Source: an uncultured Smithella sp. (lineage in GTDB: Bacteria > Desulfobacterota > Syntrophia > Syntrophales > Smithellaceae). Taken from it: 64,000 nucleotides of DNA. Location: contig CAYVFA010000001.1 of assembly GCA_964450075.1 (NCBI GenBank), forward strand, positions 11,893-75,892, read 5' to 3'. Position numbers and translations under genes: made by a program. Position 1 is the first letter of the stretch, and each line of letters begins with the position of its first letter. Under the pieces are notes generated by a model that saw only the letters and a list, made by a program, of their open reading frames with translations, ran no database searches and had not been told where the DNA came from. Of this stretch, positions 1 through 17,626 are shown piece after piece.

Positions 1-635
1 TTACCACGCCGGAGGCGACCACGAAGGAGGCTATTACCATGGCCTTTGAGGACATGCGGCAGAAGGTTGGACCCAACGATCTTTTTATCTTCTACAATGC
101 ATCTCACGGCATGGTTGACGTGGTGAATGGTGAGGAACAATATTTTCTACTGACGAGTAATGTCCGGCTCCTTTCTTCTCAGCATATCAGCAAAGATGCC
201 CTGAGTCACAAGGATCTGGTGAGTCTAATTGGCAGTATTCCGGCGCAGAAGAAAGTGGTGATCCTCGACACCTGCAATGCGGGCAAAGGGGGCAAGGAAA
301 TCCAGATAGCCCTGCTGCAGCAAACGAGAGGCCTCACCGACGCAACAGCGGTCAAGCTCCTGCAGCGGGCTGTGGGTTCATCGGTCTTTTCCGCTTCTGC
401 CGACACCCAGCAGGCACTGGAAGGCTATAAAGGACACGGGCTATTTACCTATGTGCTTCTGGAAGGATTACAGGGTGCGGCGGACTTCAAGAAAGATGGC
501 TTCATCACCGTGAAGGGTCTTGCCCTGCACACGGAGGAACGCGTGATGACACTTTCCGAGGAAGTTTTCAAACGTCAACAGAACCCGATGATCGAGACGG
601 GCGTCAATGATTTTCCGATTGGGAGGGTGAAGTAG
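1..635 (+). CDS. Caspase-like peptidase C14 domain protein, C-terminal part (5' end lies outside the window)
   Basis: The frame is open from nt 3. It has the FYNASHG motif (His codon 105-107) and VILDTCNAG motif (Cys codon 273-275). The C-terminus is clearly paralogous to the 10935-13268 product, including the shared ...FPIG(R/K)VK* end. Confidence 0.85.
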   Translation, partial: TTPEATTKEAITMAFEDMRQKVGPNDLFIFYNASHGMVDVVNGEEQYFLLTSNVRLLSSQHISKDALSHKDLVSLIGSIPAQKKVVILDTCNAGKGGKEIQIALLQQTRGLTDATAVKLLQRAVGSSVFSASADTQQALEGYKGHGLFTYVLLEGLQGAADFKKDGFITVKGLALHTEERVMTLSEEVFKRQQNPMIETGVNDFPIGRVK

Positions 636-654
636 TGGATAGTGGATCGTGGGT
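634..654. repeat. Heptanucleotide tandem repeat AGTGGAT AGTGGAT CGTGGGT
   Basis: Read directly. It overlaps the TAG stop codon (633-635) by 2 nt and runs on directly 3' of it. Confidence 0.6.
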
Positions 655-682
655 ATCAAACAAAATCGTGTAATAAGGTTAT

Positions 683-1225
683 ATGATGCCTGAAATAGCT
701 TATACCAGCATTGGAAGAAATATGCTTTTTACGGGATTGATCAGTCACGTTGCCGCCATTCTTGTGGCGACCATGGCCGCTTCCGGCAGAGACCATTTTT
801 TCGGTTTTGTCTATTTATTCTCCTGCCTGCTCCTTGTTGCCGGCGCTTTTGCGGAATTGAAAAAAAAAGGCTACCGGCCATTGATCGAATGGCGATTCTA
901 CGTGATCGCGGCCCTAACGGTTTTCCCTTTACTTGGGCCGTTAATGGTTCTGGGGCTGGTTTACAGTATCCCGAAAAGCGGGCAGGAGGAACGCGTCAGT
1001 CTGTCGGGTTTGCTTCCAGCGTTTTTCAGGTTCAGGGCGAATGGAGTGGTTTTGTTTTTACTGATGATCTTTCTGTTTGTTTTATTTTTATTCGCAAGTC
1101 GTCAGGATGATCCTTACTTTAAGAAAAGATATCGGAACGATTTGGGCAGGAATTTGCCGAAGTCTGTTTTAGCAGCAGGTCATCACAGGGATTATGCCCA
1201 AATAGCCAAAATATTTTGCCGATGA
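683..1225 (+). CDS. Hypothetical polytopic membrane protein
   Basis: 180-aa ORF with several hydrophobic segments (LFTGLISHVAAILVATMAA, FVYLFSCLLLVAGAF, VVLFLLMIFLFVLFLF). I recognise no family. Confidence 0.55.
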   Translation: MMPEIAYTSIGRNMLFTGLISHVAAILVATMAASGRDHFFGFVYLFSCLLLVAGAFAELKKKGYRPLIEWRFYVIAALTVFPLLGPLMVLGLVYSIPKSGQEERVSLSGLLPAFFRFRANGVVLFLLMIFLFVLFLFASRQDDPYFKKRYRNDLGRNLPKSVLAAGHHRDYAQIAKIFCR

Positions 1226-1242
1226 GATGTAGGTGAAACACT

Positions 1243-2067
1243 TTGCTGAAAAAATATCAACCCGAACGCACGGATTTATTGATCAACACGGAATGGGGCA
1301 TCCCGCGCGACGGCTTGTCAAAAGAGGAAGCCAAAGGCCCGAAGATGCTTCTTTTCAAAGGCCGGTGGGTGACCAGGAAAGAAAAAAAGCAGCTTCAGGA
1401 CGAACGAAATGCCTACACTTCGATCAGGGTCATTGGCTATCTCCTTCTTTTTATTTGCGTTCCTGTTCTGATTAATATCCGACTAATTGCAGCCAATGGT
1501 ATCACGACTGTTGCCTTGGCCGTCATTTACGCGTTTGCCGCGGTAGCGACCGGCGCGGGATTAATCCGATATACGCGATATGCACGTTACCCGGCCGTTT
1601 TGCTTTTTATGTCCTTCTTCGTTTTGCCGTTTATGCCGCTCTTTGAAAGTGAAAAAGGATCACCGCTCCTGTTTATCCTTGGAATGGCTGGTCTTTATTA
1701 TCTTCTGCGCAAGACGGCACGGAATATTCTTTGGCCGCAGACCGGTCTTAAATCCGATGATAAAAGAATCAAGCCTGTTATTCGTATAATCATTTATGGC
1801 ATTGTCCTGATTGCCGGACTGTTGGCCGGTTATTTTATCTATGATGCGACACAGGCCGGGCGGATGGCCGCTGATGCCTGCGATTCTGCAGAAGCGGGAC
1901 AGCCTGTTGAAGAATACTTGTCAAAATTATCAAAAGAGGATTACAGAATAATCCGAAGATCTGAAACGATTATGATCGTGCCGAAAAGAGGCATGGGCCG
2001 GAACTACTGCACGATCACCCATGACGGCCGGATCATTACCGGCGCAGAAACAGGTTTTATGGATTAA
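1243..2067 (+). CDS. Hypothetical membrane protein with a soluble C-terminal domain
   Basis: TTG start 6 nt after AGGTGA. There are four hydrophobic segments and then a ~75-aa hydrophilic tail. No family recognised, and the start is uncertain. Confidence 0.5.
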   Translation: MLKKYQPERTDLLINTEWGIPRDGLSKEEAKGPKMLLFKGRWVTRKEKKQLQDERNAYTSIRVIGYLLLFICVPVLINIRLIAANGITTVALAVIYAFAAVATGAGLIRYTRYARYPAVLLFMSFFVLPFMPLFESEKGSPLLFILGMAGLYYLLRKTARNILWPQTGLKSDDKRIKPVIRIIIYGIVLIAGLLAGYFIYDATQAGRMAADACDSAEAGQPVEEYLSKLSKEDYRIIRRSETIMIVPKRGMGRNYCTITHDGRIITGAETGFMD

Positions 2068-2112
2068 GCAAACGCCTGCCAATAACTGTCGGGAAAACGA
2101 TTGGAGAAAATA

Positions 2113-3714
2113 ATGTTCAGATATAAAAAGAGTTTGTTACGTTGTTTGCTGATTTGCTTCGAAATTATTTTCATATCCTTCCTCAGTTCGGCTTCAGTCT
2201 TTGCCGGGACGAGAACTTTCATTAAGGAATACACTTACCAGGCAAGTGAAGACGACAGCCGGAACTCCAGCCGCGTCATTGCCTTGCGGGAGGTGAAAAG
2301 ACTTCTTTTGGAAGAACTGGGGACCTATCTGGAAAGTGAGACGGAAGTCAAAAACTATCAACTTACCCGTGACCAGATCACAACCCTTACCGCCGGCATT
2401 GTCCAGACAGAAATTATCGAAGAAAAGTGGGATGGGCGTTCATACTGGCTCAAGTCGAAGATAACGGCGGATGCCGAAAAAGTGGTGCAATCGATTGATA
2501 AGTTACGCAAAGACCGCGATAAGACCAATGAGCTCGAAGCGATGCGGCGGAAATCGGACGAGTTGCTTCGTGAAGTCGAGCGGCTGCGCAAACAAATGAG
2601 TTCCGGTAATGACGTCAACCGGGATCAGCAGAAGGCGGCTTATGACACATCGATCAAGCAACTCTCAGCGGCGGAATGGATTGAAAAAGGTCATGCCGTA
2701 TCAGGCCCTCATGATCAGTTCAAAGGGGCTTTTGATGCCTACAGCCGGGCCATCGAACTGGATCCGAACAATATCGAAGCGTATTATTTCCGGGCACGGA
2801 TCAGTGAAAAAAATCAGGCGATGTCCGATTACTACAAAATTCTGAGCATCGTGCCGAAAAATTCGGAAGCGCATCTCATTCGCGCCTGGACTTATAAGGA
2901 GCTTAATGAGCGTGATTCCGCGCTCAACGAATTCGCCAAAGCGATTGAGAACGCCAGGGGAAATAAAGAAATGGCTACAGCTTATCATGACCGCGGACGG
3001 TATTACACCTTGCTTCGCCCCAGGCCTTACGTCAAGTCAGGGAGCCTGACGATCCCAAACGCCATCGCGCTCTCCATTCATGATTTCAGCAAAGCCATCG
3101 CGCTTGATCCAAAGGAATCATCCTATTATTCTTCGCGTGCGGATGCTTACCTGGGAGCCGGCAAGTATGATTTGTCCATTAACGATTTCAATATCGCAAT
3201 CGCAATGGAACCGAAAAGTGCCGGATTGTATTCGGCAAGAGCGCATGTTTTTCGCTTTCTCAATAAAATGGAGCAGGCCGCCGCTGATTTCAGCCGGGCC
3301 ATTGAACTTGACCCGGAAAGTCTGTTTGTTACGCATGATTACATGATGAGAGCAGTTACCTACGAAAATCTTGGCAAATTCGATCTTGCGATCCGGGATT
3401 GGAGCAAGCTGATCGAACTGAAACCGAAAGAGTCTGGTAACTACCGGGCTAGAGCCGAAAATTATGCGAAACTCAAAAAGTATGATCTCGCCATCAAGGA
3501 CTACGGCAAGGCGGTATCGCTTGCGCCCAAAGAGGGTGCACTCTACTATGGACGCGCGCGGATTCACGCGCTTCTGAAAGATAAACACAAAGCCATTAAG
3601 GATCTGACGGTAGCAATTCAGCTTAGCCAGAGCTACAAAGAATCAGCCCGCAACGAAGCAGCGTTTGATTCCGTCCGTCAACACGCTGATTTCATCAAAC
3701 TGGTGGTGAAATAA
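2113..3714 (+). CDS. Exported TPR-repeat protein with N-terminal LPP20-like module and coiled coil
   Basis: ATG 2113 follows GGAG. The signal peptide ends ...SSASVFA-G. There are multiple TPR units (AIELDPNNIEAYYFRA, AIALDPKESSYYSSRADAY, AIAMEPKSAGLYSARA, AIELDPES...). The N-terminal ~100 aa resemble the N-terminus of the 10055 product. Confidence 0.85.
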   Translation: MFRYKKSLLRCLLICFEIIFISFLSSASVFAGTRTFIKEYTYQASEDDSRNSSRVIALREVKRLLLEELGTYLESETEVKNYQLTRDQITTLTAGIVQTEIIEEKWDGRSYWLKSKITADAEKVVQSIDKLRKDRDKTNELEAMRRKSDELLREVERLRKQMSSGNDVNRDQQKAAYDTSIKQLSAAEWIEKGHAVSGPHDQFKGAFDAYSRAIELDPNNIEAYYFRARISEKNQAMSDYYKILSIVPKNSEAHLIRAWTYKELNERDSALNEFAKAIENARGNKEMATAYHDRGRYYTLLRPRPYVKSGSLTIPNAIALSIHDFSKAIALDPKESSYYSSRADAYLGAGKYDLSINDFNIAIAMEPKSAGLYSARAHVFRFLNKMEQAAADFSRAIELDPESLFVTHDYMMRAVTYENLGKFDLAIRDWSKLIELKPKESGNYRARAENYAKLKKYDLAIKDYGKAVSLAPKEGALYYGRARIHALLKDKHKAIKDLTVAIQLSQSYKESARNEAAFDSVRQHADFIKLVVK

Positions 3715-3730
3715 TCGTCATAAAGGTAGA

Positions 3731-6730
3731 ATGGTTATGTGTAAGAAAATATTATTTGTTATTTGTCTTTTACTAATATCCCTTTTGGGAACGCTTGCTT
3801 TTGGCGCCGAGCGGGCGTCATTTGGTTTAATGATCAAGGCGGTAACGGCTGAATATGCGCAATTTATCGGTCTCACCGCTCCTGAGGGCGCCTACGTCGT
3901 TTCAGTGCCGCAGGCAGGCGACTTGCGGCCCGGTGACGTCATCCTGAAGGTTGATGACCGGAGCATCAACGCGCCTGCTGATTTGCAAGCGGTCGCGAGA
4001 TTTTATCAGCCGGGTGACAAGGTGCAGTTGCAGATTGCACGAGGTAAAGAGCGTCTCCAGATCAGCTACACTTTGAAAAGAGCTGCCGTACCGCCGGTTC
4101 GTTCGAGTCAATCCTTGCAGGCGTCGATCGTCTCAAGTTATTTCCCGACCGTGGAAAGTTCGCGCTTTGAACAGGACGTGTTGGGGGCTGAACAGCCTGT
4201 GCTGGCTTATTTCTACGCAAACTGGTGTGCGCCCTGTAAAATGTACCTGCCGATCATGCAGCAGGCCAAAGAGCAATATCCCGATGTTAAAATCGTCGGC
4301 ATTGATATCGACAAAAGCCGTGATATCGTCAGCCGCTATGGCGTATCAGGAATATTGCCGACGGTCATCCTGTTCAACGGCGGCCGGGAAGTGGACAAAA
4401 TTTCGCGGCCGTCACGCAAGGAACAGTTAGCGGAACTGCTCGCCAAGACGCGCAGTGACCATGATGAAATTGAAGTCTTCGCCTCCCTCGGCAGGGGGAG
4501 CTGGATCTTGCAGGTTGCTTTTATCAAGGACACGGAGCTGATGGCCGCCAGAGATGCTTCCGGGGCGATTAAAGTCTGGGATTACCAGCGGGGAGCCCAG
4601 GTGCGAACCTATCGCGCGGCGGTATCCGGTTTATCGCCCAACGGGGTCTATGCGGCGCTGGCTGATCCGCAGCGGACGGCCATACAGATTGTGGATATTG
4701 TGCGCCGGCAGCAAAAAGCCATCCGGACGCAGCAGTTTGTTGAAAAATTGGCGATATCACCGCGCGGCAATGCGGTGGCCAGTTTTGGAGCAGACCGCAA
4801 TGGCCGTTTCAGTGTCGATATCTGGAGCCCGGATAACCGGCTGATCAAGTCCATTCCTGTTGACCCGGGAACCAGTCCGCATTCAGTGATGTTTGTCTTT
4901 TCACCTGACGGCGCACACTTTGCGCTTTCCACCTTGAATAAACTTGAGCTGTTCACCACGAAAAGCTGGACGCATGAAGCGGTTGTCCCGCTAAAAGGTA
5001 CGGCGGCGGTGTTGCAGTTTACTTCCGACAGCAAGGCTGTCTGGATCACGGGGAAAGAGGCGCTACTGATCGACCTGCAGGGAAACAAACAGAGCGGGTC
5101 TGACGGCCGCGTGGTTGTGGGCAGGCCTGATGATCGTGTGGCCATTGCGGATAATGGTGATAATTCCTTTCGTTTGATGAGCAGCCAGTCCGATGGGAAG
5201 GGGCTTCGTTTTGCCGGTCATCGTGCGCCCATCAACGCGGGGGCGGCAAGCGATGCAGTCCCGTGGCTGGCCAGCGGTAGTTCGGACGGGACTGTCCGGC
5301 TGTGGGATACGGCTTCCGGCAGAGAGGTTGGACAGTTTGTTGATTTCGGCAATGGCGAATGGATCGTGATAACGAAAGAAGGGTATTACAATTCTTCGGC
5401 CCGGGGGCATGAATATCTGAAAATCCGCAGAGGCAACAAAGTTTACGGGATTGACCAGTTTTATGACGTGTTTTACCGTCCCGATATCGTAATGGCAAAA
5501 CTCAAAGGAGAGGATATTACGGGTCTTGTCACTCTGACGGTGGAAGAGGCGATCAAAAATCCTCCTCCTGCGGTGAAAATTTCTCAATTACCGGATCAGG
5601 TCGGCGATCCGGTAGTGAAAGTCTGCTATCAGGTGCAAAGCACCGGCGGCGGCATTGGCGAGGTGCGTTTGTTCCAGAATGGCAAACTGATTAAATCCGA
5701 CGGATTCTATCGCGACGTGGCAGCACAGGGTAAATCGGCAACCATGAAGCTGGCTTCCGTCAACAGCAGCGTTGTTTATCAGGACATGCGCTCACTGACC
5801 ATCAAGGAAAAACAAAGTCCCGGCGCACACGTTCTCCGGGCAAAGGGCGAGTTGTTTGATGAATGTGTGGACATCGTAACCATTGCCGGTGAAAACGAAA
5901 TCAGCCTCACTGCTTTCAATGCTCAAAATTCGGTACAGAGTGCAATGGGCACAGTCCGCTTCCACTCGACCATACCGCCCGACGAGCCGCATCTGTATAT
6001 CCTGGCTGTCGGCATTGACCGGTATCGCGATTCCGCAATCAATCTGAAGTATGCGGCCAAGGATGCCAGGGATTTTATGACCCGGATGGCCGATAAGGCT
6101 AAAACCATCTACAAACCGGCAAACATCCATCTGACCATCCTGGTCGATGAACAGGCGGGCAAGCAAAACATTTTGAACTCCATCGAAAAACTGGCGGCGC
6201 AAGTCAAGCACGGCGATAGTTTTATCTTTTTCAATGCGTCCCACGGTTTGCTTTTGCAAAGCCAGTACTACATGGTCACCAGCGGTTTTGCTGGCACGCT
6301 GGACCAAAACGCAAGCCTGATCAGCTCCAACGAGATTGTCGAGATGTCCAAAAAGATCAAAGCGCTGTCGCAGTTGTTTGTTTTTGACACCTGCCATGCC
6401 GGTGGCGTGGATAATATTATCAGCGGACTGTATGACGCCCGGATGTCGGTGCTGGCCAAAAAGATGGGGCTGCATATCTATGCCTCAGCCGGAAGTGTGC
6501 AAACCGCCCTGGATGGTTATCAGGCCAACGGTCTGTACACCTACACCCTGCTTGCCGGATTGAAAAATGGCGCGCTCGTGGACAGGGATAAAAGTGGTGT
6601 GGTAACGGTTAAAAGTCTGGGGATTTTTTCCAGAGAGATGACACGGGAAATTTCCAGTAAACTTGGCCATCCCCAGACGCCGTTGATCATCAATTTTGGC
6701 AAAGACAGCCGATTGTTTAACGTGCGTTGA
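3731..6730 (+). CDS. Exported PDZ - thioredoxin-like - WD40/beta-propeller - Ig-like - caspase (C14) multidomain protein
   Basis: Signal peptide ...GTLAFG-A. PDZ-like GDLRPGDVILKVDDRSINAP..GDKVQLQIARG. Thioredoxin-fold segment VLAYFYANWCAPCK (CxxC at 4226-4237). WD-like repeats (SGSSDGTVRLWDTASG). Caspase His codon at 6242-6244 (FFNASHG) and Cys codon at 6392-6394 (FDTCHAGG). Confidence 0.85.
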   Translation: MVMCKKILFVICLLLISLLGTLAFGAERASFGLMIKAVTAEYAQFIGLTAPEGAYVVSVPQAGDLRPGDVILKVDDRSINAPADLQAVARFYQPGDKVQLQIARGKERLQISYTLKRAAVPPVRSSQSLQASIVSSYFPTVESSRFEQDVLGAEQPVLAYFYANWCAPCKMYLPIMQQAKEQYPDVKIVGIDIDKSRDIVSRYGVSGILPTVILFNGGREVDKISRPSRKEQLAELLAKTRSDHDEIEVFASLGRGSWILQVAFIKDTELMAARDASGAIKVWDYQRGAQVRTYRAAVSGLSPNGVYAALADPQRTAIQIVDIVRRQQKAIRTQQFVEKLAISPRGNAVASFGADRNGRFSVDIWSPDNRLIKSIPVDPGTSPHSVMFVFSPDGAHFALSTLNKLELFTTKSWTHEAVVPLKGTAAVLQFTSDSKAVWITGKEALLIDLQGNKQSGSDGRVVVGRPDDRVAIADNGDNSFRLMSSQSDGKGLRFAGHRAPINAGAASDAVPWLASGSSDGTVRLWDTASGREVGQFVDFGNGEWIVITKEGYYNSSARGHEYLKIRRGNKVYGIDQFYDVFYRPDIVMAKLKGEDITGLVTLTVEEAIKNPPPAVKISQLPDQVGDPVVKVCYQVQSTGGGIGEVRLFQNGKLIKSDGFYRDVAAQGKSATMKLASVNSSVVYQDMRSLTIKEKQSPGAHVLRAKGELFDECVDIVTIAGENEISLTAFNAQNSVQSAMGTVRFHSTIPPDEPHLYILAVGIDRYRDSAINLKYAAKDARDFMTRMADKAKTIYKPANIHLTILVDEQAGKQNILNSIEKLAAQVKHGDSFIFFNASHGLLLQSQYYMVTSGFAGTLDQNASLISSNEIVEMSKKIKALSQLFVFDTCHAGGVDNIISGLYDARMSVLAKKMGLHIYASAGSVQTALDGYQANGLYTYTLLAGLKNGALVDRDKSGVVTVKSLGIFSREMTREISSKLGHPQTPLIINFGKDSRLFNVR

Positions 6731-6865
6731 AGATAAAACAAGGTAAAAACGGCATTCCAAATATAACTTGCGATAATATATAAAAACGATTCCGTCTTTT
6801 TTATTGCCATTTGGCGCTTGTCGAAGTATGTATTCTCAAATATTTTATCTGGGGAGATTCCTTAC

Positions 6866-8512
6866 ATGCAAGCGAAGCCCGCAAGATATTTTCTTATTCT
6901 GTTAGTCCTTATTGTCATTTATCCGGCTTTATCCATTGCTGCGACGCAGCACCGCTCTGCGCTGGTCATCGGCAATAGCGCATACAGCGCAGGCCCACTG
7001 AAGAATCCGGTCAACGATGCAGCGGACATGGCAACTGCACTCAAAGGCCTCGGCTTCAATGTCAACATGCACCGCAATGCCAACCACCAGACCATGGAAA
7101 ATGCTATCCGGGAGTTTGGCGGAAAGCTCAGGAAAAACCGTGGAGTGGGACTTTTCTACTATGCCGGCCACGGGATGCAAATCGGCGGCGTCAATTACCT
7201 CATCCCTGTCGGTGCCCGTGTGGATAAGGAATCAGACGTAAAGTTTCAGGCCGTCAACGCGGATATTATTCTGGCTGAAATGGAGAATGCCGACAATGGC
7301 ATGAACATCGTCCTGCTTGATGCCTGCAGGGACAATCCTTTCGCCCGTTCATTCAGAAGCGCCACAAGAGGCCTTGCCATCATCAGCAACGCACCGACGG
7401 GCACCTTTATTTCGTATTCCACGGGTCCCAACCAACTGGCTAAAGATGGAGAGGGAAGAAACAGCCCTTACACCAAGGCACTTCTGGAGAATATTGCCAT
7501 GCCTGGATTGAATATAAACAAGATCTTTATGAACGTAAGAAGTAAGATTATGAAGTCCACCGGCCAGGTACCTTGGGAGCTGTCATCATTGGTAGGGGAC
7601 TTCTACTTCATTCCACCAAAGGGATCTGTTGCTTCCGTGCGGGATGAAGCTATTAAGGCTTCTCAGGCTATAGACGCCATGGACGAGGAGAACCAGAGAC
7701 TAGATACGGAAAAGGAAGTCCAAAGCCAGGCAAAGCTGGAACAGAAGCAGGAGAAGAAGACAACAAATACCTTGTCCACAAGCACGGACAATGTCTTGGC
7801 CCATCCGCCGGAGCTTTCGCACGATAGTTTATTTACCGACCCCACCACTGTTATGCAGTTTGTCTTCGTCAAGGGTGGCTGCTACCAGATGGGAGACACC
7901 TTTTGGTTTGGTAAATTTGACAAAAAACCAGTCCATGATGTTTGTGTCAGCGATTTTTATATTGGGAAATATGAAGTTACACAGGGCGAATGGCAGAAAA
8001 TTATGGGCTACAACCCTTCATATTTCGGAAGTTGCGGCGAAAACTGCCCAGTGGAGAGAGTCTCATGGAATGACGCTCAGGATTTTATAAAGAAACTCAA
8101 CAGCCTGACGGGGAAACGATATCGTTTGCCGACAGAGGCAGAATGGGAATACGCGGCAAAAAGCGGCGGAAAAAGCGAGAAATATGCGGGTGATAGTGAT
8201 GTCGACACTGTGGCTTGGTATCGGGGTAATTCTAGCAAAGAAACTCACCCAGTTGGTCAGAAACAGCCTAATGGTCTGGGACTTTTCGACATGAGTGGAA
8301 ATGTTTGGGAGTGGTGTAATGACTTGTATGGAAGCGATTATTACAAAAACAGCCCACAAAATAACCCTGACGGGCCGTCGTTAAGTGACGGGCGCGTCCT
8401 TCGTGGCGGGAGCTGGAGCGACAATGCGTACACTTCTGACCGCTATTGGGACTATCCTGTCAAACGGATTGACTACGTAGGTTTGCGGCTTTCCTTCCCC
8501 CTAGGTCAGTGA
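6866..8512 (+). CDS. Exported caspase (C14) - FGE-sulfatase (SUMF1-like) domain fusion protein
   Basis: ATG 6866 gives signal peptide MQAKPARYFLILLVLIVIYPALSIA-A. Caspase motifs are ALVIGNSAY, FYYAGHG (His 7169-7171) and LLDACRDNPF (Cys 7325-7327). The C-terminal FGE-sulfatase motifs are VSWNDAQDF, RLPTEAEWEYAA, GNVWEWCND and RVLRGGSW. Confidence 0.88.
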   Translation: MQAKPARYFLILLVLIVIYPALSIAATQHRSALVIGNSAYSAGPLKNPVNDAADMATALKGLGFNVNMHRNANHQTMENAIREFGGKLRKNRGVGLFYYAGHGMQIGGVNYLIPVGARVDKESDVKFQAVNADIILAEMENADNGMNIVLLDACRDNPFARSFRSATRGLAIISNAPTGTFISYSTGPNQLAKDGEGRNSPYTKALLENIAMPGLNINKIFMNVRSKIMKSTGQVPWELSSLVGDFYFIPPKGSVASVRDEAIKASQAIDAMDEENQRLDTEKEVQSQAKLEQKQEKKTTNTLSTSTDNVLAHPPELSHDSLFTDPTTVMQFVFVKGGCYQMGDTFWFGKFDKKPVHDVCVSDFYIGKYEVTQGEWQKIMGYNPSYFGSCGENCPVERVSWNDAQDFIKKLNSLTGKRYRLPTEAEWEYAAKSGGKSEKYAGDSDVDTVAWYRGNSSKETHPVGQKQPNGLGLFDMSGNVWEWCNDLYGSDYYKNSPQNNPDGPSLSDGRVLRGGSWSDNAYTSDRYWDYPVKRIDYVGLRLSFPLGQ

Positions 8513-8567
8513 GCCTGGCAGGTTCTTCATCGCTTGCCTAATCTGTCTGGCCCCAAGCGCAGTAAAG

Positions 8568-8588
8568 TCCCCCTTTTTTAAAGGGGGA
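8568..8588. repeat. Perfect palindrome TCCCCCTTT-TTT-AAAGGGGGA, followed by a GGGGGATT direct repeat
   Basis: Read directly: 9-bp stem with a 3-nt loop, 56 nt after the stop of the caspase-FGE gene. GGGGGATT occurs at 8583-8590 and 8593-8600. It may act as a terminator or as the left end of the DUF559 cassette. Confidence 0.5.
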
Positions 8589-8652
8589 TTTAGGGGGATT
8601 GAGCTTCAGGCTCATAGTCACCCTTAGTAAAGGGGGGACAGGAGGGATTTTA

Positions 8653-9021
8653 ATGTTGCCCTTTAATAAAAAATTAAAGCCGTTGGCCCGGACGTTAAGA
8701 AGCAACATGACCGATGCCGAGCAGCTTATCTGGTCGAAGATCAGGCGAAAACAGATAGGCAACTTGCAATTCTACCGTCAGAAAAACATAGGTAACTACA
8801 TTGTGGACTTTTATTGCCCCAAGGCTAAACTTATCTTGGAGATTGACGGTGGGCAGCATTACGAAAGCAATGGGGTGAGAAAGGACCAGACCAGGGAACG
8901 CTATCTTCAAGGTTTGGGATTAACTGTGATGCGCTTTTCCAACATAGACATTCTCAAAAATATTGATGGCGTTTCAGAAAAAATTGAGGACTATTTAAAA
9001 TCCACCCCACCCCTCCTTTAA
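8653..9021 (+). CDS. DUF559 (Vsr-like PD-(D/E)XK endonuclease) domain protein
   Basis: ATG 8653 follows GGAGGG. The sequence LARTLRSNMTDAEQLIWSKIRRKQ..FYRQKNIGNYIVDFYCPKAKLILEIDGGQH...ERYLQGLGLTVMRF is typical of DUF559. Confidence 0.85.
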   Translation: MLPFNKKLKPLARTLRSNMTDAEQLIWSKIRRKQIGNLQFYRQKNIGNYIVDFYCPKAKLILEIDGGQHYESNGVRKDQTRERYLQGLGLTVMRFSNIDILKNIDGVSEKIEDYLKSTPPLL

Positions 9022-9031
9022 AAAAGGAGGG
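9011..9031. repeat. Perfect palindrome CCCTCCTTT-AAA-AAAGGAGGG at the 3' end of the DUF559 gene
   Basis: Read directly. It overlaps the stop codon. With the preceding AAATCCACCCCACCCC it forms an imperfect inverted counterpart of the G-rich left flank (8579-8600). Confidence 0.5.
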
Positions 9032-9218
9032 AGACTCGCGTTTCACGCGAAATCCACTTCAACCCTACCCTAGAAAAGGATGGGATTTTGCTGGTATGGC
9101 GAAGGAAACTATATGAAAAAGATAATGTTGAAGATTTATCGGTAAAAATGAAACGTTAAGGCTTCAAAGGCAGATATGAGGACGGCCGTCACGGGCGTTA
9201 TTTATGGAGGCGTGATTG

Positions 9219-9626
9219 ATGACTTCACAGGATGTTCGCTGGATTCAGCGTTTTAAACATTTTGAACAAGCATATGCTCAGTTGGAAAAGGCCGTGGAGC
9301 TTTCTAAAAAACGTCCGCTAACCGAGCTCGAAGAACAGGGAATCATTCAGGCTTTCGAATACACCCATGAACTGGCGTGGAACGTATTGAAAAACTTTCT
9401 GGAAGAACAGGGCGTGCGAGAGCTTTACGGCTCCAAAGACAGCAGCCGCGAGGCATTCAAACGGGGTCTCATCGAAAACGGAGACGCCTGGATGGACATG
9501 ATCCAAAACAGAAATCTTACCTCCTATACTTACAATAAAGATGTTGCTCAAAAAATTGTCCAAGCGATCCTGGAAAATTATTACGCGGAATTCGGAAGAC
9601 TGTTTGAAAAGTTTAAAAGCCTGTAA
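9219..9626 (+). CDS. HEPN-type nucleotidyltransferase substrate-binding protein (HI0074 family), putative toxin
   Basis: ATG 9219 follows GGAGG. The sequence RWIQRFKHFEQAYAQLEKAVE...IQAFEYTHELAWNVLKNFLE...RNLTSYTY fits the HI0074 family pattern. It is paired with the MNT gene 10 nt downstream. Confidence 0.85.
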   Translation: MTSQDVRWIQRFKHFEQAYAQLEKAVELSKKRPLTELEEQGIIQAFEYTHELAWNVLKNFLEEQGVRELYGSKDSSREAFKRGLIENGDAWMDMIQNRNLTSYTYNKDVAQKIVQAILENYYAEFGRLFEKFKSL

Positions 9627-9635
9627 GGAAAAGCC

Positions 9636-9992
9636 ATGAAATACGGACTCAAAGAATCCGCTATTGAGAAAATCTGCGAAATCTTCAATCGCTATCCACA
9701 GGTGGGCAAAGCTGTTCTGTATGGATCACGCGCCAAAGGAAACTATAAAAACGGGTCTGATATCGACCTGACACTGGATGGCGACGCCGACCTGACGATG
9801 AATGTCCTGTATAGGATTATGGATGATATTGACGACCTGTATCTGCCTTATCATTTTGACCTTTCCATTCTGAAGGATATCCGCGATCAGGATGTCCTCG
9901 ATCATATCCGGCGCATCGGCGTTGTATTCTACGAAAGAAAAGAAATCAGGAAGCTCGAATCAACCTTCGGGGAAGAAATTCATCATGCCTGA
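9636..9992 (+). CDS. Minimal nucleotidyltransferase (MNT, HI0073-like), putative antitoxin
   Basis: LYGSRAKGNYKNGSDIDL is the GS-x10-DxD nucleotidyltransferase motif. The product is 118 aa. Confidence 0.85.
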   Translation: MKYGLKESAIEKICEIFNRYPQVGKAVLYGSRAKGNYKNGSDIDLTLDGDADLTMNVLYRIMDDIDDLYLPYHFDLSILKDIRDQDVLDHIRRIGVVFYERKEIRKLESTFGEEIHHA

Positions 9993-10018
9993 TAAAATAG
10001 CAGAAAATATTAACTGGA

Positions 10019-10034
10019 TGGCAATTCCGTTGCC
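10019..10034 (+). promoter_or_regulatory. Candidate sigma-54 (-24/-12) promoter TGGCAA-TTCCG-TTGCC
   Basis: GG at 10020-10021 and GC at 10032-10033 have the canonical spacing of TGGCAC-N5-TTGC. The site lies 21 nt upstream of the 10055 start codon. The predicted TSS (~10045) would leave only a ~10-nt leader beginning at the GGAGG. Confidence 0.35.
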
Positions 10035-10054
10035 TGAAATTCAAGGAGGTTTTT

Positions 10055-10918
10055 ATGCGTAAAATATTATTGATTCTGGCTTTACTGGTTTTGATGGCTG
10101 TGCCGCTTTATGCCGCGCAATCGACGATTAAGATCGCGGAAGGTTCCGCCTGTATGGGGGATGACAAATCGCGCAAACAAACTGAAACGGCGGCCCTGAC
10201 CGAAGCCAAAAGAAACGCGGTCGAGTCGGTCAAAACCTATGTGTCGTCCGCAACGGAAGTAAAAGATTTTGAACTTCAAAAAGATCTTGTGTCCGCTTAC
10301 GCCAACGCCACGGTTTCAGTGATCGAGACACTGGAAAAGGCCTGGTATAAAGATCCGGCGCAGGGCGACTGTTACAAGATCAAGCTGAAGGCCGAAGTTA
10401 TTCCGGATGAAAAGGCCATGAAGAAAGCCAATGAAAAAGCCAGTGATGCGATCCTTGATGATCCGTCATTGCCTCTGACCGTGAAAGTCTGGACGGATAA
10501 AGCAGCTTATCGCACAGGCGAGAAAATCAAGATTTATCTCAAAGGCAACAAGCCTTTCTTTGCCCGGGTGATTTACCGCGACGCGGCAAAAACCAGCCTG
10601 CAGTTGCTGCCCAATCCCTACCGTCAGGACAATTACTTTCAGGGCGGCGTCATTTATGAAATCCCCTCCGGTAATGATAAATTTGAACTGGAAGTGAATC
10701 CGCCTTTCGGCGAGGAAAATATCATGGTTTATGCCAGTGTTTCCGAACTGGGCGATCTGAATTTGAAGGAAGAAGGCAGTGTCTATGCCGTCAAAACAAA
10801 ATCAAGGGACATTGGCATCAAAACCAGAGGGGTCAAAATTACAGCTGGCGGGCAGGCGAGCGCCACGCAGTCTGCGGAATTTTCCGAAGGCAAAGTGACG
10901 GTTAAGACAAAAAAATGA
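10055..10918 (+). CDS. Exported DUF4384 domain protein with N-terminal LPP20-like module
   Basis: AAGGAGG RBS and signal peptide ...MAVPLYA-A. The DUF4384-like core is LTVKVWTDKAAYRTGEKIKIYLKGNKPFFARVIYRD...LQLLPNPY...FELEVNPPFGEENIMVYAS. Confidence 0.8.
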   Translation: MRKILLILALLVLMAVPLYAAQSTIKIAEGSACMGDDKSRKQTETAALTEAKRNAVESVKTYVSSATEVKDFELQKDLVSAYANATVSVIETLEKAWYKDPAQGDCYKIKLKAEVIPDEKAMKKANEKASDAILDDPSLPLTVKVWTDKAAYRTGEKIKIYLKGNKPFFARVIYRDAAKTSLQLLPNPYRQDNYFQGGVIYEIPSGNDKFELEVNPPFGEENIMVYASVSELGDLNLKEEGSVYAVKTKSRDIGIKTRGVKITAGGQASATQSAEFSEGKVTVKTKK

Positions 10919-10934
10919 GGCAAAAGGAGCAGAG

Positions 10935-13268
10935 ATGTCTGTTTGTCGAACAGTAGTAATCGTCTGTTTTGCGCTTTTTCTTTCTTCCTGTGCGGCGACG
11001 CCTGTTTTGACCGGAAAAGGTGATATGTCGCGGGAAATTAAACAAAAAGCTCCCGCAGTGGGTAAGGTGGATATCTCTCCGGATGGACGATACGCTTTGT
11101 CGAGCAGCTTTGATTCTTTTATCCTTTGGGACATCCGGCAGGGTGTGAAAATACAGACTTTCAATCATGTTAGCGGCATGGGTTTTACAGTCGCGGTTGC
11201 TTTTTCGCCTGATGGAAAATATTTTGCCTCCGGTGGCAAAGGAACAAAACTTTGGGATTTGGCTACAAGACAGGAAATAATGACATTGGATGATGAGGGA
11301 ACGATCTCTGTCGCTTTCTCTCCTGATGGAAAATATCTTTTGTGCGGGAATACTTCTTTAGACTTGAACTTGCTTTCGGCACCTAAACCTCACACCATGA
11401 AAATCTTTGATGTGGCAACGGGACGAAAAGTCAGAGATTTTAAATTACATAAAAAAGATGTTATCTGCGCTGTTGCCTTTTCTCCGGATGGCAAATATGC
11501 ATTATCGGGCGGCAGTTTCGGCAATATTGAACTATGGAGTATATCGTCCGGGACGTCCGTGAAAACAGTGGCAGGAAGTGATGGTGCTTTTCTTCTGCCT
11601 CCTCGTGTTAATGCCGTTTCTTTTTCTTCAGATGGTGAATATGCCCTGTCGGGCGGACACGATAATCTTGTTAAATTGTGGAATACAAAAAACTTAACAC
11701 TGATCAGGACATTTGCCGGTCACTCTGGTATGGGCGGAGTTAGTTCCGTGGATTTTTCACGGGACGGTAAATATATTGTGTCCGCAGGATGGAATGGGAA
11801 CATAAAAATATGGGATTTGGCGACGGGAGCCAAATTAAAAGCTTTTAGCGGCAATATTGTTACAACGCAGGCCGGCACTTCGGCGAAATTCTTTCCAAAT
11901 GGCAGGCAGGTGATATCCGCAGGTGACGCTTCCACCCGAATATGGGATGCCGCCACAGGCGAAGAAATTGCTTCCATGATTGATTTTGAAGACGGCGAAT
12001 GGATTATAACAACAGCCAATGGCTATTATACCTCCTCCCCTAAAGGCGATCAGTATCTCGGCGTTACCGTCGGCGGTAAGGAATACAGCACAGAGCAGTT
12101 GCGGGAGAGTTTCTACCGTCCCGATCTTGTTCAGGTAGCACTTGGGGGTGGATCTTTAAAAGATCTGAAAAAGGTGGCGGATGTCAAACCGCCTCCGGTA
12201 GTGGCCATCGTCGATACGCCTAAAAGCATCGACAAGAGCGATGCGACCATCACCTTGAAAATTACCGATGCCGGTGGCGGCATTGGCGATATCCGGCTTT
12301 ACCTCAACGGGTCTGCTGTCATGCTGGACAGCACCAGAGGTGTAAAAGTTGTTACATCCAATCAGAGCGAAATTACAAAAACCTATCAACTGAAACTATC
12401 AAGCGGCGTGAACGTTGTCAGGGCCATTGCCTTTAATGCCGATAATACCATGCAAAGCACAGACGCTGTTCAGGAAATTACAGCGGCATTTAAAGCTGTC
12501 GGCAAGCCTTATCTTTATGCGTTGGTCATAGGCATCAACGAGTATAAAAACCCAAAACTCCAACTGAATTACGCTGTCGCTGATTCCGATCTGTTTGCCA
12601 ACACGCTTCAACAAGGCGCATCCTCTCTTTTTGAGAAAGTAACCATAAAAAAGCTTTCTTCTAAAGAAGAGACAACCCGGGAAAACATCTTAAAAGAACT
12701 CAAAGCCATGCAGTCGTTAAACCCCGACGACCTGTTTGTCTTCTATGTGGCAAGCCACGGTACAGTTGACGACGGAGAGTATTTTCTGATTACGTCCAAT
12801 GTCGGTTCTGTATCGACAGCAAAGCTCAAAACGGATGCGGTCAGTCAGAACTCATTGAAAGAACTGATTGCCAACATTCCCGCGACCAAGAAGCTGATCG
12901 TCATCGATACATGCAGTGCCGGTCAATTAGGCGATGTTATCCAAACGGCCATGCTGACGCGTGGCATGAGCGAAGCCACGGCCATGAAGGTGTTGAGCCG
13001 TGCGGTGGGCTCAACCATTCTTTCTGCTTCTACTTCGATTCAGGAAGCGCTGGAAGGATACAACGGGCATGGGCTCTTTACCTATGTCCTGGCGGATGGA
13101 TTGAAGGGCAAGGCGGACAAGAGCAAGACCGGGTTTATTAAGACAACAGAGCTGGCGGATTACGTGGATAATGAGGTACCCGCTCTTGCTGAAAAAGTAT
13201 TCAAACGGGCGCAGTACCCGACCATATCCATCAGCGGGCAGGGTTTTCCGATCGGAAAGGTAAAATAA
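10935..13268 (+). CDS. Lipoprotein WD40-repeat - Ig-like - caspase (C14) protein
   Basis: AAGGAG RBS and lipobox FLSSC. There are at least 7 WD40 units (VAFSPDGKYFASGG..KLWDL, GHDNLVKLWNT, GWNGNIKIWDLATG). The caspase His codon is 12756-12758 (FYVASHG) and the Cys codon is 12912-12914 (VIDTCSAG). Confidence 0.9.
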   Translation: MSVCRTVVIVCFALFLSSCAATPVLTGKGDMSREIKQKAPAVGKVDISPDGRYALSSSFDSFILWDIRQGVKIQTFNHVSGMGFTVAVAFSPDGKYFASGGKGTKLWDLATRQEIMTLDDEGTISVAFSPDGKYLLCGNTSLDLNLLSAPKPHTMKIFDVATGRKVRDFKLHKKDVICAVAFSPDGKYALSGGSFGNIELWSISSGTSVKTVAGSDGAFLLPPRVNAVSFSSDGEYALSGGHDNLVKLWNTKNLTLIRTFAGHSGMGGVSSVDFSRDGKYIVSAGWNGNIKIWDLATGAKLKAFSGNIVTTQAGTSAKFFPNGRQVISAGDASTRIWDAATGEEIASMIDFEDGEWIITTANGYYTSSPKGDQYLGVTVGGKEYSTEQLRESFYRPDLVQVALGGGSLKDLKKVADVKPPPVVAIVDTPKSIDKSDATITLKITDAGGGIGDIRLYLNGSAVMLDSTRGVKVVTSNQSEITKTYQLKLSSGVNVVRAIAFNADNTMQSTDAVQEITAAFKAVGKPYLYALVIGINEYKNPKLQLNYAVADSDLFANTLQQGASSLFEKVTIKKLSSKEETTRENILKELKAMQSLNPDDLFVFYVASHGTVDDGEYFLITSNVGSVSTAKLKTDAVSQNSLKELIANIPATKKLIVIDTCSAGQLGDVIQTAMLTRGMSEATAMKVLSRAVGSTILSASTSIQEALEGYNGHGLFTYVLADGLKGKADKSKTGFIKTTELADYVDNEVPALAEKVFKRAQYPTISISGQGFPIGKVK

Positions 13269-13275
13269 GAAAGAA

Positions 13276-13310
13276 GGTTCAGGGTTCAAGGTGAAAAGCT
13301 GAAAGCGGTG
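13276..13310. repeat. Degenerate heptanucleotide tandem repeat (GGTTCAG GGTTCAA GGTGAAA AGCTGAA AGCGGTG)
   Basis: Read directly. It begins 8 nt after the stop codon at 13266-13268. Confidence 0.5.
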
Positions 13311-13345
13311 ATGTGTAACAAATGACAAGGAAATGGAGATGAAAG

Positions 13346-15139
13346 ATGAAAAGATTATGGGTTTACTCTTGGGTGATCATGGCTCTGGTTCTCTCTTTTG
13401 CCGCGGCGCGGGAAACACTGGCGCAAAATCCCACACCCATGAAGGTCGCCCTCATTTTTGATATCGGCGGCAGAGGCGACGGCGGATTTAACGATTCCGC
13501 ATACAACGGTCTGGAAAAGGCAGTTACCGAACTGGGGGTGAAAGCCGTCTATGTCGAACACAAGAGAAATCTGGAACTGGATCATGCTATAAATGAGGCG
13601 TTGGCTTCAGATGTGGGGATGATTATCGGCGTTGGATTTGCAGTTTCAGACAAGCTGGATAAACTGGCCGCAAAATATCCTGATAAAAAATTCGTCTGCG
13701 TGGATTATAGCGTGAAGCATGACGACAAAGGCCGGATTATTCCATTGCCTGCCAATCTGGCCGGGCTCACGTTCAAAGAAGAGGAAGGTTCTTATCTGGT
13801 CGGGGCGATGGCGGCCTTAAAAAGCAAAACAGGGGAAATCGGTTTTATCGGCGGTATGGACAGTCCGATCATCCGTAAATTTCAGGCAGGCTATCAGGCC
13901 GGTGCGCTTGCTGTCCGGCAGGATATTCGCGTGTCATCAAAATATGCGGGGATAACCGGTCAGGCATTTAATGATCCGCAAAAAGGATACCAAATTGCAA
14001 GCCGCATGTATAAAGAGGGCGCGGATATTATCTATCATGCGTCAGGGGCGACGGGCGCCGGGCTTTTCGAGGCAGCAAAGAAGATGAAACGTCTGGCCAT
14101 CGGTGTGGATATAGATCAGAGCGCGCAGGCTCCCGGACTTGTCCTGACAAGCATGACCAAGCATATCGATGTGGCGGTCTTCGAGAGCGTGAGGTCCTGT
14201 GTTCGGGGAAACTTTTCCGGAGGTTTGAAGACCTTCGGTCTGAAAGAAAACGGTGTCGGCTTTGTATATAATGATCAAAACAAGAAGCTGATTCCTGTGG
14301 AAATTCACAAAAAAGTCCTGGCGCTGCAGGCGAAGATCATTGCGGGGGCATTGACGGTTCCCACCGAGAGTAACCATCAGCTTCTGCTTTCCCGAAAAGA
14401 TCTGCAAGACCTTCTGTCGGGATTGCATTCGGAGGTCAACACGGCGCTTGGCAAGCTGGACGGCGATGTTAAGCGAAGCGCGCAGGCCCTGAACGGCAGG
14501 GACTTGAAGGGCGATTCCGCCCGGGACGTACTCAAAAAGCTCTATGATGCGAATTCATATATCATTGACTGCGAAACGGTGAGCAATTCGGGAATTATGC
14601 TGGTTGTTGAACCGCCCGCGCACCGGACGTCCGAGGGCGCCGATATCAGCAAGCAGGCGCATATGGTCAAGCTATTCAAAACCCATAAGCCGGTGATGAG
14701 CGGTTCTTTCCGTTCCGTCGAAGGTCCCCAAGCTGTTGTCATACATTATCCCGTATTTTCATCGGGGCATCGGTTTGAGGGGTCGGTGGCGGCGCTCTTT
14801 GCCCCGGAACATCTTTTGTCGAGCATCATCGGACCGGTTGCTTCGAACCTGCCAGTCGATATCTTCCTGATGCAAACCGACGGTCTGGTTATTTATGATG
14901 TTGATGTGACGCAGATCGGGCGTAATGTTTTTACGGACCCCTTATATCAGCCCTTTCCGGACCTGATTGATCTGGCAAAAAAAGTGGCTGACACGAACGA
15001 TGGAACGGGTGTTTTCCGTTTCTATCAGATGGGCGGCAAAACGCCGGTGACGCATGTAGCGTATTGGAGGACCGTCAAGCTGCATGGTGCGACGTGGCGT
15101 CTTGTGATTACCTGTGCAAAGGACCATATCGAAAAATGA
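13346..15139 (+). CDS. Exported BMP/PnrA-family substrate-binding domain fused to a C-terminal Cache-like sensor domain
   Basis: Signal peptide is present. KVALIFDIGGRGDGGFNDSAYNGLEKA...GFIGGMDSPIIRKFQAGY is typical of BMP-family ABC substrate-binding proteins. The C-terminal ~230 aa look like a Cache/PDC fold, which is a weaker call. No permease or ATPase genes are adjacent. Confidence 0.7.
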   Translation: MKRLWVYSWVIMALVLSFAAARETLAQNPTPMKVALIFDIGGRGDGGFNDSAYNGLEKAVTELGVKAVYVEHKRNLELDHAINEALASDVGMIIGVGFAVSDKLDKLAAKYPDKKFVCVDYSVKHDDKGRIIPLPANLAGLTFKEEEGSYLVGAMAALKSKTGEIGFIGGMDSPIIRKFQAGYQAGALAVRQDIRVSSKYAGITGQAFNDPQKGYQIASRMYKEGADIIYHASGATGAGLFEAAKKMKRLAIGVDIDQSAQAPGLVLTSMTKHIDVAVFESVRSCVRGNFSGGLKTFGLKENGVGFVYNDQNKKLIPVEIHKKVLALQAKIIAGALTVPTESNHQLLLSRKDLQDLLSGLHSEVNTALGKLDGDVKRSAQALNGRDLKGDSARDVLKKLYDANSYIIDCETVSNSGIMLVVEPPAHRTSEGADISKQAHMVKLFKTHKPVMSGSFRSVEGPQAVVIHYPVFSSGHRFEGSVAALFAPEHLLSSIIGPVASNLPVDIFLMQTDGLVIYDVDVTQIGRNVFTDPLYQPFPDLIDLAKKVADTNDGTGVFRFYQMGGKTPVTHVAYWRTVKLHGATWRLVITCAKDHIEK

Positions 15140-17020: not shown

Positions 17021-17037
17021 GCTTTCTGCTCCTTGTT

Positions 17038-17496: not shown

Positions 17497-17626
17497 TGAA
17501 TCTCCCTTTCCGGTTTTTATGAAGGCACTCTATACTATAAAAATACTTGCAATTGAAATAGATTAATTTTAACTATAAGCCGAAATCGTAAAAAGTCGTA
17601 TTGAAATCAGATTGTAAGGAGTGCTT

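Follow-up and report, generated by a model that had tools for sequence, protein, structure and literature searches.

An island of apparently exported caspase-like proteases in an uncultured Smithella sp. and its possible role in envelope proteolysis

What is the task of a row of caspase-like proteases in a bacterium when all of them appear to leave the cytoplasm? The question is raised by a gene island of a sediment bacterium, an uncultured Smithella sp. (GenBank assembly GCA_964450075.1, contig CAYVFA010000001.1), from which a stretch of 64,000 nucleotides (nt), hereafter the window, was analysed. The island covers positions 1 to 15139 on the forward strand and its genes were named A to L (Table 1), based on a six-frame listing of open reading frames (ORFs) with their translations and on Pfam domains at the gathering score. 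Four of the genes, A, E, F and K, encode caspase-like proteases, and a further gene of this type is located 21 kb from the island. A preliminary description of positions 1 to 13268 had proposed an extracytoplasmic sensing or killing system. The reading preferred here, tentatively and with slightly less than even confidence, is that of exported zymogen endopeptidases, probably specific for arginine or lysine, which perform limited proteolysis in the envelope and have the small protein J as cognate substrate or regulator.

The caspase domain (Peptidase_C14, PF00656) scored 42.7 to 127.5 bits in A, E, F and K and 68.2 bits in the product of 34452-36839, with a cut-off of 21.4, in agreement with the four same-strand ORFs reported in the preliminary description. 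The domain of F aligned directly to MALT1, with AGHG on YYAGHG and LLDACR on LLDMCR. Single-sequence searches of the K and E domains against solved structures gave chance matches or nothing, the domains of A, E and K being too divergent for such matching. A profile of 28 aligned caspase domains from the window and related loci, including all four window copies, matched MALT1 with an E-value of 1e-15; its His-Gly and Asp-x-Cys columns fell on the corresponding MALT1 motifs and an upstream Asp was aligned too. The same profile also matched the metacaspases Yca1 of yeast, MCA2 of trypanosomes, AtMC4 and AtMC9 of plants, and Geobacter protein GSU0716. In the 28 domains (numbering of alignment A2) H88, G89 and D138 are invariant and C140 (27 of 28) and D30 are nearly so. 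The catalytic columns of A read ASHG and DTC, and the product of 34452-36839 has YAGHG and DSC in register with K. The His/Cys dyads described earlier are therefore intact and in register with MALT1, directly for F and by means of the profile for A, E and K. D30 and D138 correspond to two Asp positions which we take to line the arginine pocket of MALT1, and because these acidic positions are conserved, the enzymes probably prefer to cut at Arg or Lys. In an alphaproteobacterial locus (L048), the catalytic Cys is replaced by Ser (IDTSQ) in one of four tandem caspase paralogues (17032-17805), which is probably an inactive pseudo-protease.

Export was called with a home-made heuristic, which scores an uncharged hydrophobic stretch close to the N-terminus when a lipobox or a small-x-small site comes after it. 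The call was positive for D, E, F, J, K and L and negative for G, H and I. A signal-like N-terminus was seen in 75 of the 88 complete caspase genes from related loci; in the background, 343 long ORFs, the count was 99. For lipoboxes the counts were 31 of the 88 and 9 of the 343. In a test for the lipobox motif [LVI][ASTVI][GAS]C behind a hydrophobic stretch, predicted lipoproteins were K (LSSC), the product of 34452-36839 (IMSC) and two proteins encoded to the left of the window, a CHAT protease (FLSC) and the small lipoprotein S1 (LYSC). Cys19, the lipobox residue of K, does not vary among 15 orthologues. Cleaved off or kept as an anchor, such a hydrophobic start would leave the remainder of the protein outside the cytoplasm. 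From their N-termini, the caspases of the island appear to be exported, as had been proposed for every complete member: E, F and K gave positive calls, and the product of the full gene of A, found on another contig, starts with a signal sequence.

The proteases have a common build of signal peptide or lipobox, ligand-binding module, a module named mid (a hairpin/helical part and an Ig-like part) and a caspase domain whose His/Cys pair is intact. What serves as ligand-binding module differs: one to three WD40 propellers, a PDZ domain with thioredoxin and a degenerate propeller, TPR repeats or a lectin-like FGE domain. The fusions to WD40, to PDZ plus thioredoxin and to FGE-sulfatase given in the preliminary description were also found by Pfam. 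No significant Pfam family was found for mid on its own, for the C-terminal domain of C or for the N-domains of D and J. Among K orthologues, identity is 58% in the propeller and 83-86% in mid plus caspase. The rate of change was judged by identity per domain; synonymous sites are expected to be saturated at a protein identity of about 75%.

The AlphaFold model of K (mean predicted local distance difference test, pLDDT, of 78) consists of a seven-bladed propeller, a hairpin/helical piece, an Ig-like sandwich and a caspase domain. The propeller matches seven-bladed WD40 structures, and a fold search with the whole chain was dominated by it, returning WD40 propellers only. Residues 526-775 show alternating strands and helices, with a pLDDT of mostly 70-90, and both H608 and C660 are invariant in the 15 orthologues. 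Between the two caspase halves, residues 670-706 have a pLDDT of 34-51. Within this low-confidence segment lies the motif L674-T-R-G-M-S-E680 (LTRGMSE), invariant in the 15 orthologues, and at the equivalent position of six E-type proteins DARMSVLAKKMG is invariant. A flexible segment with a fixed Arg would be expected of an autoprocessing site in an Arg-specific zymogen.

Orthologues of E in loci L014 and L080 are 79-81% identical to it and keep the full architecture, including the WCAPC motif of the thioredoxin domain. The PDZ domain of E resembles those of DegP/HtrA. For the FGE-like domain of F, the best solved match is the Treponema variable protein TvpA, a non-enzymatic binding protein. 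Where Streptomyces FGE has GGSYLC, F reads GGSWSD and is missing the Cys, presumably a catalytic residue of FGE; the domain is probably a lectin-like binder and not an enzyme.

The island proved to be larger than first noted. A search with B recovered a 100% identical copy over 99% of its length on a contig of 16.5 kb (L079). Its overlap with the window spans 10,561 bases, of which 3 are mismatched, and it adds 5,965 bases on the left. This extension (L079 1-5965) contains the end of another K-like caspase gene, the TPR-CHAT protease (760 amino acids, with intact HG and SAC motifs), S1 (150 amino acids, conserved in L080, L082 and L083) and the missing part of A. The full A gene (L079 3136-6600) encodes 1154 amino acids starting with MFRFKYLCRALSIALGMIAILSTSLVFA and comprising a signal peptide, propellers, mid and caspase. 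At least six caspase-like cysteine proteases, all apparently exported, are encoded in the cluster. The outlying gene at 34452-36839 encodes a lipoprotein with a CARDB repeat, and a caspase of that type is also present in the multi-caspase locus L010.

For comparison with relatives, one genome per species was scanned, which resulted in 76 loci (related loci are labelled L0xx throughout). An exact-sequence look-up of K returned no contig, and the context was obtained via homologues. More than 7,700 homologues of K were found, of which the best 120 are 69-86% identical and of equal length, with Smithella, Smithellaceae, Syntrophaceae and Desulfobacterales assemblies as named sources. Beyond the Smithellaceae and Syntrophaceae, the 76 loci belong to Nitrospirota, Nitrospinota, Gallionellaceae, Geobacteraceae, Holophagaceae and Alphaproteobacteria, and the core architecture of propeller(s), mid and caspase, with one to about three propellers, is found across them. 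A HMMER search with the mid and caspase part of K (432 amino acids) against 1.84 billion cluster representatives gave 2,546 proteins at an E-value of 1e-30 or better (50%-identity clusters). Among the 150 best matches, the module is C-terminal in nearly all, in proteins of 450-1,470 amino acids. In a sample of 40 representatives (39-69% identity), the His and the Cys are both retained in 38 and the start is signal-like in 31; among the nine signal-negative ones, several look like truncated N-termini or misses of the heuristic. In three alphaproteobacterial loci, TIR_2 proteins of about 290 amino acids are encoded 550-680 nt downstream of the propeller-caspase gene (L057 13689-14558, L065 13629-14504 and L066 13756-14628), which hints at a link to defence in this branch.

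Independent walks from B and from J recovered one and the same locus, the order of which in Smithellaceae is [secreted S2, ~155 amino acids]-B-[C]-[S1]-(caspase)n-J-[K]-L, with n from 0 to at least 5. This syntenic locus is often located beside the acyl-CoA ligase and NifU/NifS genes that are also present in the window. The number of caspase genes is zero in L085 (J-L only), one in L080 (E only), L084 and L069, two in L086, four in L014 and at least five, plus the CHAT protease, in the window with L079. The order B ... caspase(s) ... J occurs in at least seven genomes. Co-location, which the preliminary description had left to be checked in related genomes, is real and inherited and not fortuitous; what the locus contains is fluid, and none of the partners is obligatory. 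Protease copy number varies between genomes through tandem gain and loss. A protease-inhibitor gene of a different family each time was found within 10 kb in all three loci lacking a caspase (L082, L083 and L085; Table 1), which may be chance.

As putative operon partners, 87 same-strand, closely spaced neighbours in 75 related loci were taken. DUF4384, the domain of J, tops their Pfam census with 9 of the 87, followed by PAS and then by TPR and CHAT, and when all neighbour genes were clustered no specific partner other than the J family recurred. The lack of an NTPase, already part of the preliminary description, was confirmed: none was found in the window, in the 6-kb extension or in the 25 commonest families among the 87 partners, and the gene table of the window and Pfam gave no STAND- or AAA-type NTPase beside the island.

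J homologues are 75-91% identical, and J lies 12-536 nt from a caspase gene in eight loci, three of them from Nitrospirota-type assemblies. Adjacency of J and K was observed in both Smithellaceae and Nitrospirota-type assemblies. The tail of J (residues 247-287; window 10793-10915) has a pLDDT below 50, yet contains the invariant residues DIGIKTR, EFSEG and a terminal TKK; it is rich in Lys and Arg and probably disordered according to the model. The tail resembles a short docking or cleavage motif. The N-domains of J and D (about 90 amino acids; window 10100-10400 and 2101-2400) are 31% identical (E 2e-9), and their best structural match, a weak one from a low-confidence J model, is the Helicobacter lipoprotein Lpp20 (E 3.5e-3). 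J is followed by L, directly or with K in between, in L009, L016, L085 and L086, and in L084 L is located about 6 kb from J. No NCBIfam family was found for J.

B is a rare protein, with only 28 homologue clusters in 5.8 billion proteins. Its gene immediately precedes propeller-caspase genes, or lies next to them, in L014, L022, L069, L072, L080, L084 and L086, and in the first three of these 12-18 nt are shared between B and the start of the caspase gene that comes next. In L080, L082, L083 and L084, B is followed by C or by only the C-terminal part of C; the two-cysteine C-terminal domain of C would be periplasmic. The D orthologue in L043 adjoins C and a propeller-caspase gene. For B and C, no family was found in Pfam, NCBIfam or PADLOC. 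Gasdermin-like or pore-forming effectors were considered for B and C and rejected, as sequence support is absent and B-C occur without proteases. In one record (P0145), B overlaps the start of a gene for a 1100-amino-acid WD40 protein, and HipA, HTH, helicase, MazG-like, HNH and HEPN/nucleotidyltransferase genes adjoin, which resembles a defence island.

Between F and J, the genes G, H and I (8599-9992) were omitted from the preliminary description, which had otherwise correctly listed the TPR protein D, the DUF4384 protein J and the membrane proteins B and C as the content between the caspases. H and I, as neighbouring NTase_sub_bind and Polbeta-type genes, form a HEPN/nucleotidyltransferase pair, and the order H-I-J is repeated in L009. 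Because G, H and I are missing from the syntenic loci L080, L084 and L086, they look like mobile passengers, and they are probably a toxin-antitoxin passenger outside the protease set.

Table 1. Genes of the island, the outlying caspase gene of the window and inhibitor genes at related loci lacking a caspase.
Feature	Location	Strand	Product and domains
A	3-635 (cut by window start)	+	C-terminal 210 amino acids of WD40-mid-caspase; Peptidase_C14 E 6.8e-11
B	683-1225	+	small membrane protein, about 4 hydrophobic segments
C	1243-2067	+	membrane protein, about 5 hydrophobic segments, 70-amino-acid two-cysteine C-terminal domain
D	2101-3714	+	predicted signal peptide, Lpp20-like N-domain, coiled coil, TPR repeats; TPR_1 E 1.4e-31
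E	3731-6730	+	predicted signal peptide, PDZ_2, Thioredoxin (WCAPC), degenerate propeller (weak WD40), mid, caspase; Peptidase_C14 E 1.9e-13
F	6866-8512	+	predicted signal peptide, caspase (Peptidase_C14 E 8.3e-37), FGE-like lectin domain (FGE-sulfatase E 2.1e-42)
G	8599-9021	+	DUF559, endonuclease-like
H	9216-9626	+	HEPN-like NTase_sub_bind, PF08780 147.9 bits
I	9636-9992	+	Polbeta-type nucleotidyltransferase, PF18765 62.2 bits
J	10055-10918	+	predicted signal peptide, Lpp20-like domain, DUF4384 (E 1.5e-22), conserved tail
K	10935-13268	+	predicted lipoprotein (LSSC), one 7-bladed WD40 propeller, mid, caspase; Peptidase_C14 E 9.7e-19
L	13346-15139	+	predicted signal peptide, Bmp/PnrA-type binding domain (Bmp E 4.6e-66), Cache-like sensor (HK-GC-Chemotax_sensor E 9.8e-36)
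Further caspase lipoprotein, 795 amino acids	34452-36839	+	IMSC lipobox, CARDB Ig-like repeat E 6.7e-8, C-terminal Peptidase_C14 E 1.1e-18
Chagasin-type Inhibitor_I42	L082 7595-7960		near B-C, no caspase
Kunitz_BPTI	L083 17584-18012		near B-C, no caspase
Serpin	L085 1128-2336		near J-L, no caspase

The gaps between the genes of the row, calculated from the ORF coordinates, are 9-194 nt, with 9 nt between H and I. Promoter-like sites were rarer than in shuffled sequence, no terminator-like sites were found in the intergenic gaps, and Rfam and tRNA scans of the window were empty. The remainder of the window is of a housekeeping nature, with genes for acyl-CoA ligases, NifU/NifS, acyl-CoA dehydrogenases, EF-G and chemotaxis. 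A signal-bearing protein of 577 amino acids with a LysM peptidoglycan-binding domain is encoded at 45092-46822 on the reverse strand, and no link to the island was seen.

Some features of the island have been described before. Asplund-Samuelsson et al. 2012 (PMC3501461) reported WD40 and TPR as the commonest fusion partners of metacaspases, with FGE-sulfatase in fifth place, and an N-terminal helix, 'likely to be signal peptides', in about 15% of the prokaryotic metacaspases, with a likely extracellular location. They also listed multi-metacaspase operons in four groups including the Deltaproteobacteria, with up to three in Desulfococcus oleovorans, and speculated on programmed death or fratricide at the cell surface, so that the extracytoplasmic idea of the preliminary description was not new. 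Prokaryotic metacaspase-like proteins, or orthocaspases (MEROPS C14, PF00656), were surveyed by Klemencic & Funk 2017 (PMC5756287). Later reviews added nothing on exported bacterial caspases, and in the literature searched no experimental study of an exported propeller-caspase lipoprotein was found. The island proteases have the predicted fold and the catalytic pair in common with the orthocaspases, but their members all appear to be exported, with the catalytic domain mostly C-terminal behind mid, and the recurrent DUF4384, B and C partners are not described in these surveys. MALT1, the best solved-structure match of the island caspase domains, is similar in the catalytic domain only; it is a eukaryotic, cytoplasmic protein with death and Ig domains, activated on a scaffold, and the island proteases differ from it in these respects. 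To our knowledge, the biochemistry of orthocaspases is known only for cyanobacterial enzymes such as MaOC1, which are cytoplasmic.

In some Csx30 proteins, the C-terminal domain is DUF4384; Csx30 is the protein on which the CHAT protease of Craspase acts, and DUF4384 has been described as 'often fused to protease domains' (bioRxiv 10.1101/2022.08.17.504292); no other functional context for it was found in the literature searched. Like Craspase (type III-E CRISPR, Csx29 TPR-CHAT with Csx30), the island combines a caspase-fold protease with a separate DUF4384-capable protein and also holds a TPR-CHAT protease, but the Craspase proteins are cytoplasmic and RNA-guided, whereas J and the island CHAT protease carry predicted export signals. 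Neither Cas7-11 nor a CRISPR array was present in the gene tables of L079 and the window, and no search was aimed at CRISPR repeats. The periplasmic PDZ proteases DegP, DegS and Prc are comparable to E, which starts with an HtrA-type PDZ domain, but use serine catalysis in place of the cysteine caspase fold, a likeness in possible mode of action and not in family. BamB is a propeller lipoprotein like K. By analogy, these likenesses suggest that E and K recognise protein tails or partners in the envelope.

In the preferred reading, the array consists of paralogous caspase-fold endopeptidases (clan CD, family C14, plus one CHAT) that would work outside the cytoplasm. They would be made as inactive single chains in the periplasm, those of the K type tethered to the membrane by a lipid anchor, and would cleave after Arg or Lys. 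Activation would be a cut at the conserved Arg (TR676-GMSE in K, DAR904-MSV in E) of the flexible segment that joins the large half of the domain to the small one. Choice of the protein ligand would fall to the variable N-terminal module, and the task would be limited, regulated proteolysis of envelope proteins and not bulk digestion. J may be the cognate substrate or regulator because DUF4384 accompanies proteases across phyla and is fused to proteases elsewhere; its Lys/Arg-rich tail could dock on a propeller or on the PDZ domain of E. An extracytoplasmic cysteine protease would fit anaerobic or microaerophilic hosts, and the thioredoxin domain fused to E could keep a thiol reduced.

Several observations weigh against this reading. 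We infer the activity, specificity, autoprocessing and location of the members, and the export heuristic has a background call rate of 29%. The J model is poor (pLDDT 56), which makes its fold assignment weak. K orthologues usually have no J, B or C within 10 kb; as they are mostly alone, these partners are not obligatory or act in trans. B-C occur without a caspase nearby (L082 and L083, together with S1), as do J-L (L085), and of the 29 related loci flanked by 4 kb or more on each side, only 6 contain two or more caspase genes. A single conserved system, as implied by the preliminary description, is contradicted by these counts. The surroundings also have features of a conflict type, with the HEPN/nucleotidyltransferase pair and DUF559 inside the island, HipA, HEPN and HNH genes beside one locus of B with a propeller, and TIR-domain genes beside the alphaproteobacterial copies, and the spread of the family over phyla suggests horizontal transfer. 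The preferred reading and the three alternatives that follow, in descending order of probability, were each judged separately, and the judgements were not normalised to one.

The same conflict-type surroundings would fit an extracytoplasmic conflict or death module, in which a foreign or non-kin molecule in the envelope is sensed by the propeller, lectin and TPR modules, and the caspases then attack envelope proteins, with death of the cell or of a neighbour as the outcome. We consider this unlikely. The propeller evolves faster than the catalytic part and is present in one to three copies, the number of paralogues per locus varies from 0 to at least 5, the family crosses phyla, and the FGE-like domain of F is closest to a variable surface-binding protein. 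Lectin domains of the FGE type have been proposed as sensors of invaders, some of them predicted to be periplasmic (PMC7159879, PMC10907252). Like the island, NTPase-centred conflict systems (Kaur et al. 2020, PMC7159879) and gasdermin-protease systems join caspase or CHAT domains to WD40, TPR and FGE-like sensor modules, and a further likeness is their enrichment in morphologically complex or sediment bacteria. However, work on conflict systems has centred on NTPase-linked, mostly cytoplasmic assemblies (PMC7159879, PMC10907252). The hallmark of these systems is a STAND, MoxR or GTPase component, an adaptor domain or a gasdermin, whereas the island is devoid of these and its proteases carry predicted export signals. 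No effector-associated adaptor domain was found in the island by Pfam; B, C, D and J had no PADLOC match, and Pfam gave no gasdermin family. With the NCBIfam model for conflict-type caspases (NF047832, EACC1-associated type) the island caspases scored 47-85 bits, below the cut-off of 140, and all other NCBIfam caspase matches were also sub-threshold. PADLOC returned only its generic caspase model and, for I, nucleotidyltransferase matches, and no known defence system fitted. Conservation of K, J and E is 70-91%, and their place on the chromosome, next to NifU/NifS and acyl-CoA ligase, is stable and syntenic, which is unusual for an arms-race locus, and no diversity-generating retroelement or hypervariable region was seen. 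With the catalytic module and J strongly conserved and not diversifying, the killing, kin-recognition or phage-recognition role proposed in the preliminary description, or a role in immunity, is not supported.

Clustering without joint function, with independent paralogues produced by tandem duplication and B, C, D, J and L as unrelated envelope proteins, is likewise judged unlikely. The solitary K orthologues, the B-C and J-L pairs lacking caspases and a locus content that differs in each genome examined would all fit. Against this stand the order of B, caspase(s) and J described above, which the searches from B and from J recovered independently, the J-K adjacency kept across phyla and the overlap of B with the start of the next caspase gene (L014, L022 and L069).

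Porphyromonas, an anaerobe, exports cysteine proteases specific for Arg or Lys, the gingipains (C25, clan CD), in which an Ig-like domain adjoins a caspase-type fold. A comparable role, in which surface-anchored Arg/Lys-specific proteases degrade environmental protein for amino acids with the propeller and Ig-like domains as adhesins, is improbable for the island. Clan, predicted fold and the probable preference for a basic cut site agree; Ig-like or CARDB domains adjoin the catalytic domain, the hosts are anaerobic, paralogues are many and the neighbour L is a predicted secreted binding protein of a nutrient type. Gingipains nevertheless belong to a different family, carry a C-terminal type IX secretion signal and have a nutritional and virulence role, and neither a peptide transporter nor such a signal was found by Pfam beside the genes in the window or in the census of operon partners. 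The hosts are syntrophic oxidisers of fatty acids or alkanes and not known to live on protein, modules such as PDZ, thioredoxin and the propeller suggest that the ligands are specific proteins, and the tight link to the small conserved J fits regulation better than digestion.

Least probable is an elaboration of the preferred reading into an apoptosis-like periplasmic cascade without an NTPase platform, in which several exported caspase zymogens would activate one another at the conserved Arg and converge on J, the cleavage or release of which would be passed on via B/C or sensed by L and lead to a change in behaviour or to lysis.

Bacterial caspase homologues have mostly been discussed as cytoplasmic effectors of death or immunity. 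The island represents a very large branch that appears to be exported and is devoid of an NTPase, with thousands of sequence clusters over Desulfobacterota, Nitrospirota, Acidobacteria, Nitrospinota, Beta- and Alphaproteobacteria. K, a compact and strongly conserved predicted lipoprotein, its R676 as candidate activation site and J as candidate partner offer handles on this branch. A role of J as partner, if true, would be the first function for DUF4384, a domain recurrent beside proteases and present in the Craspase substrate Csx30. If regulated envelope proteolysis is indeed the task of these enzymes, the question of what bacterial caspases do would be answered differently for a large share of them.

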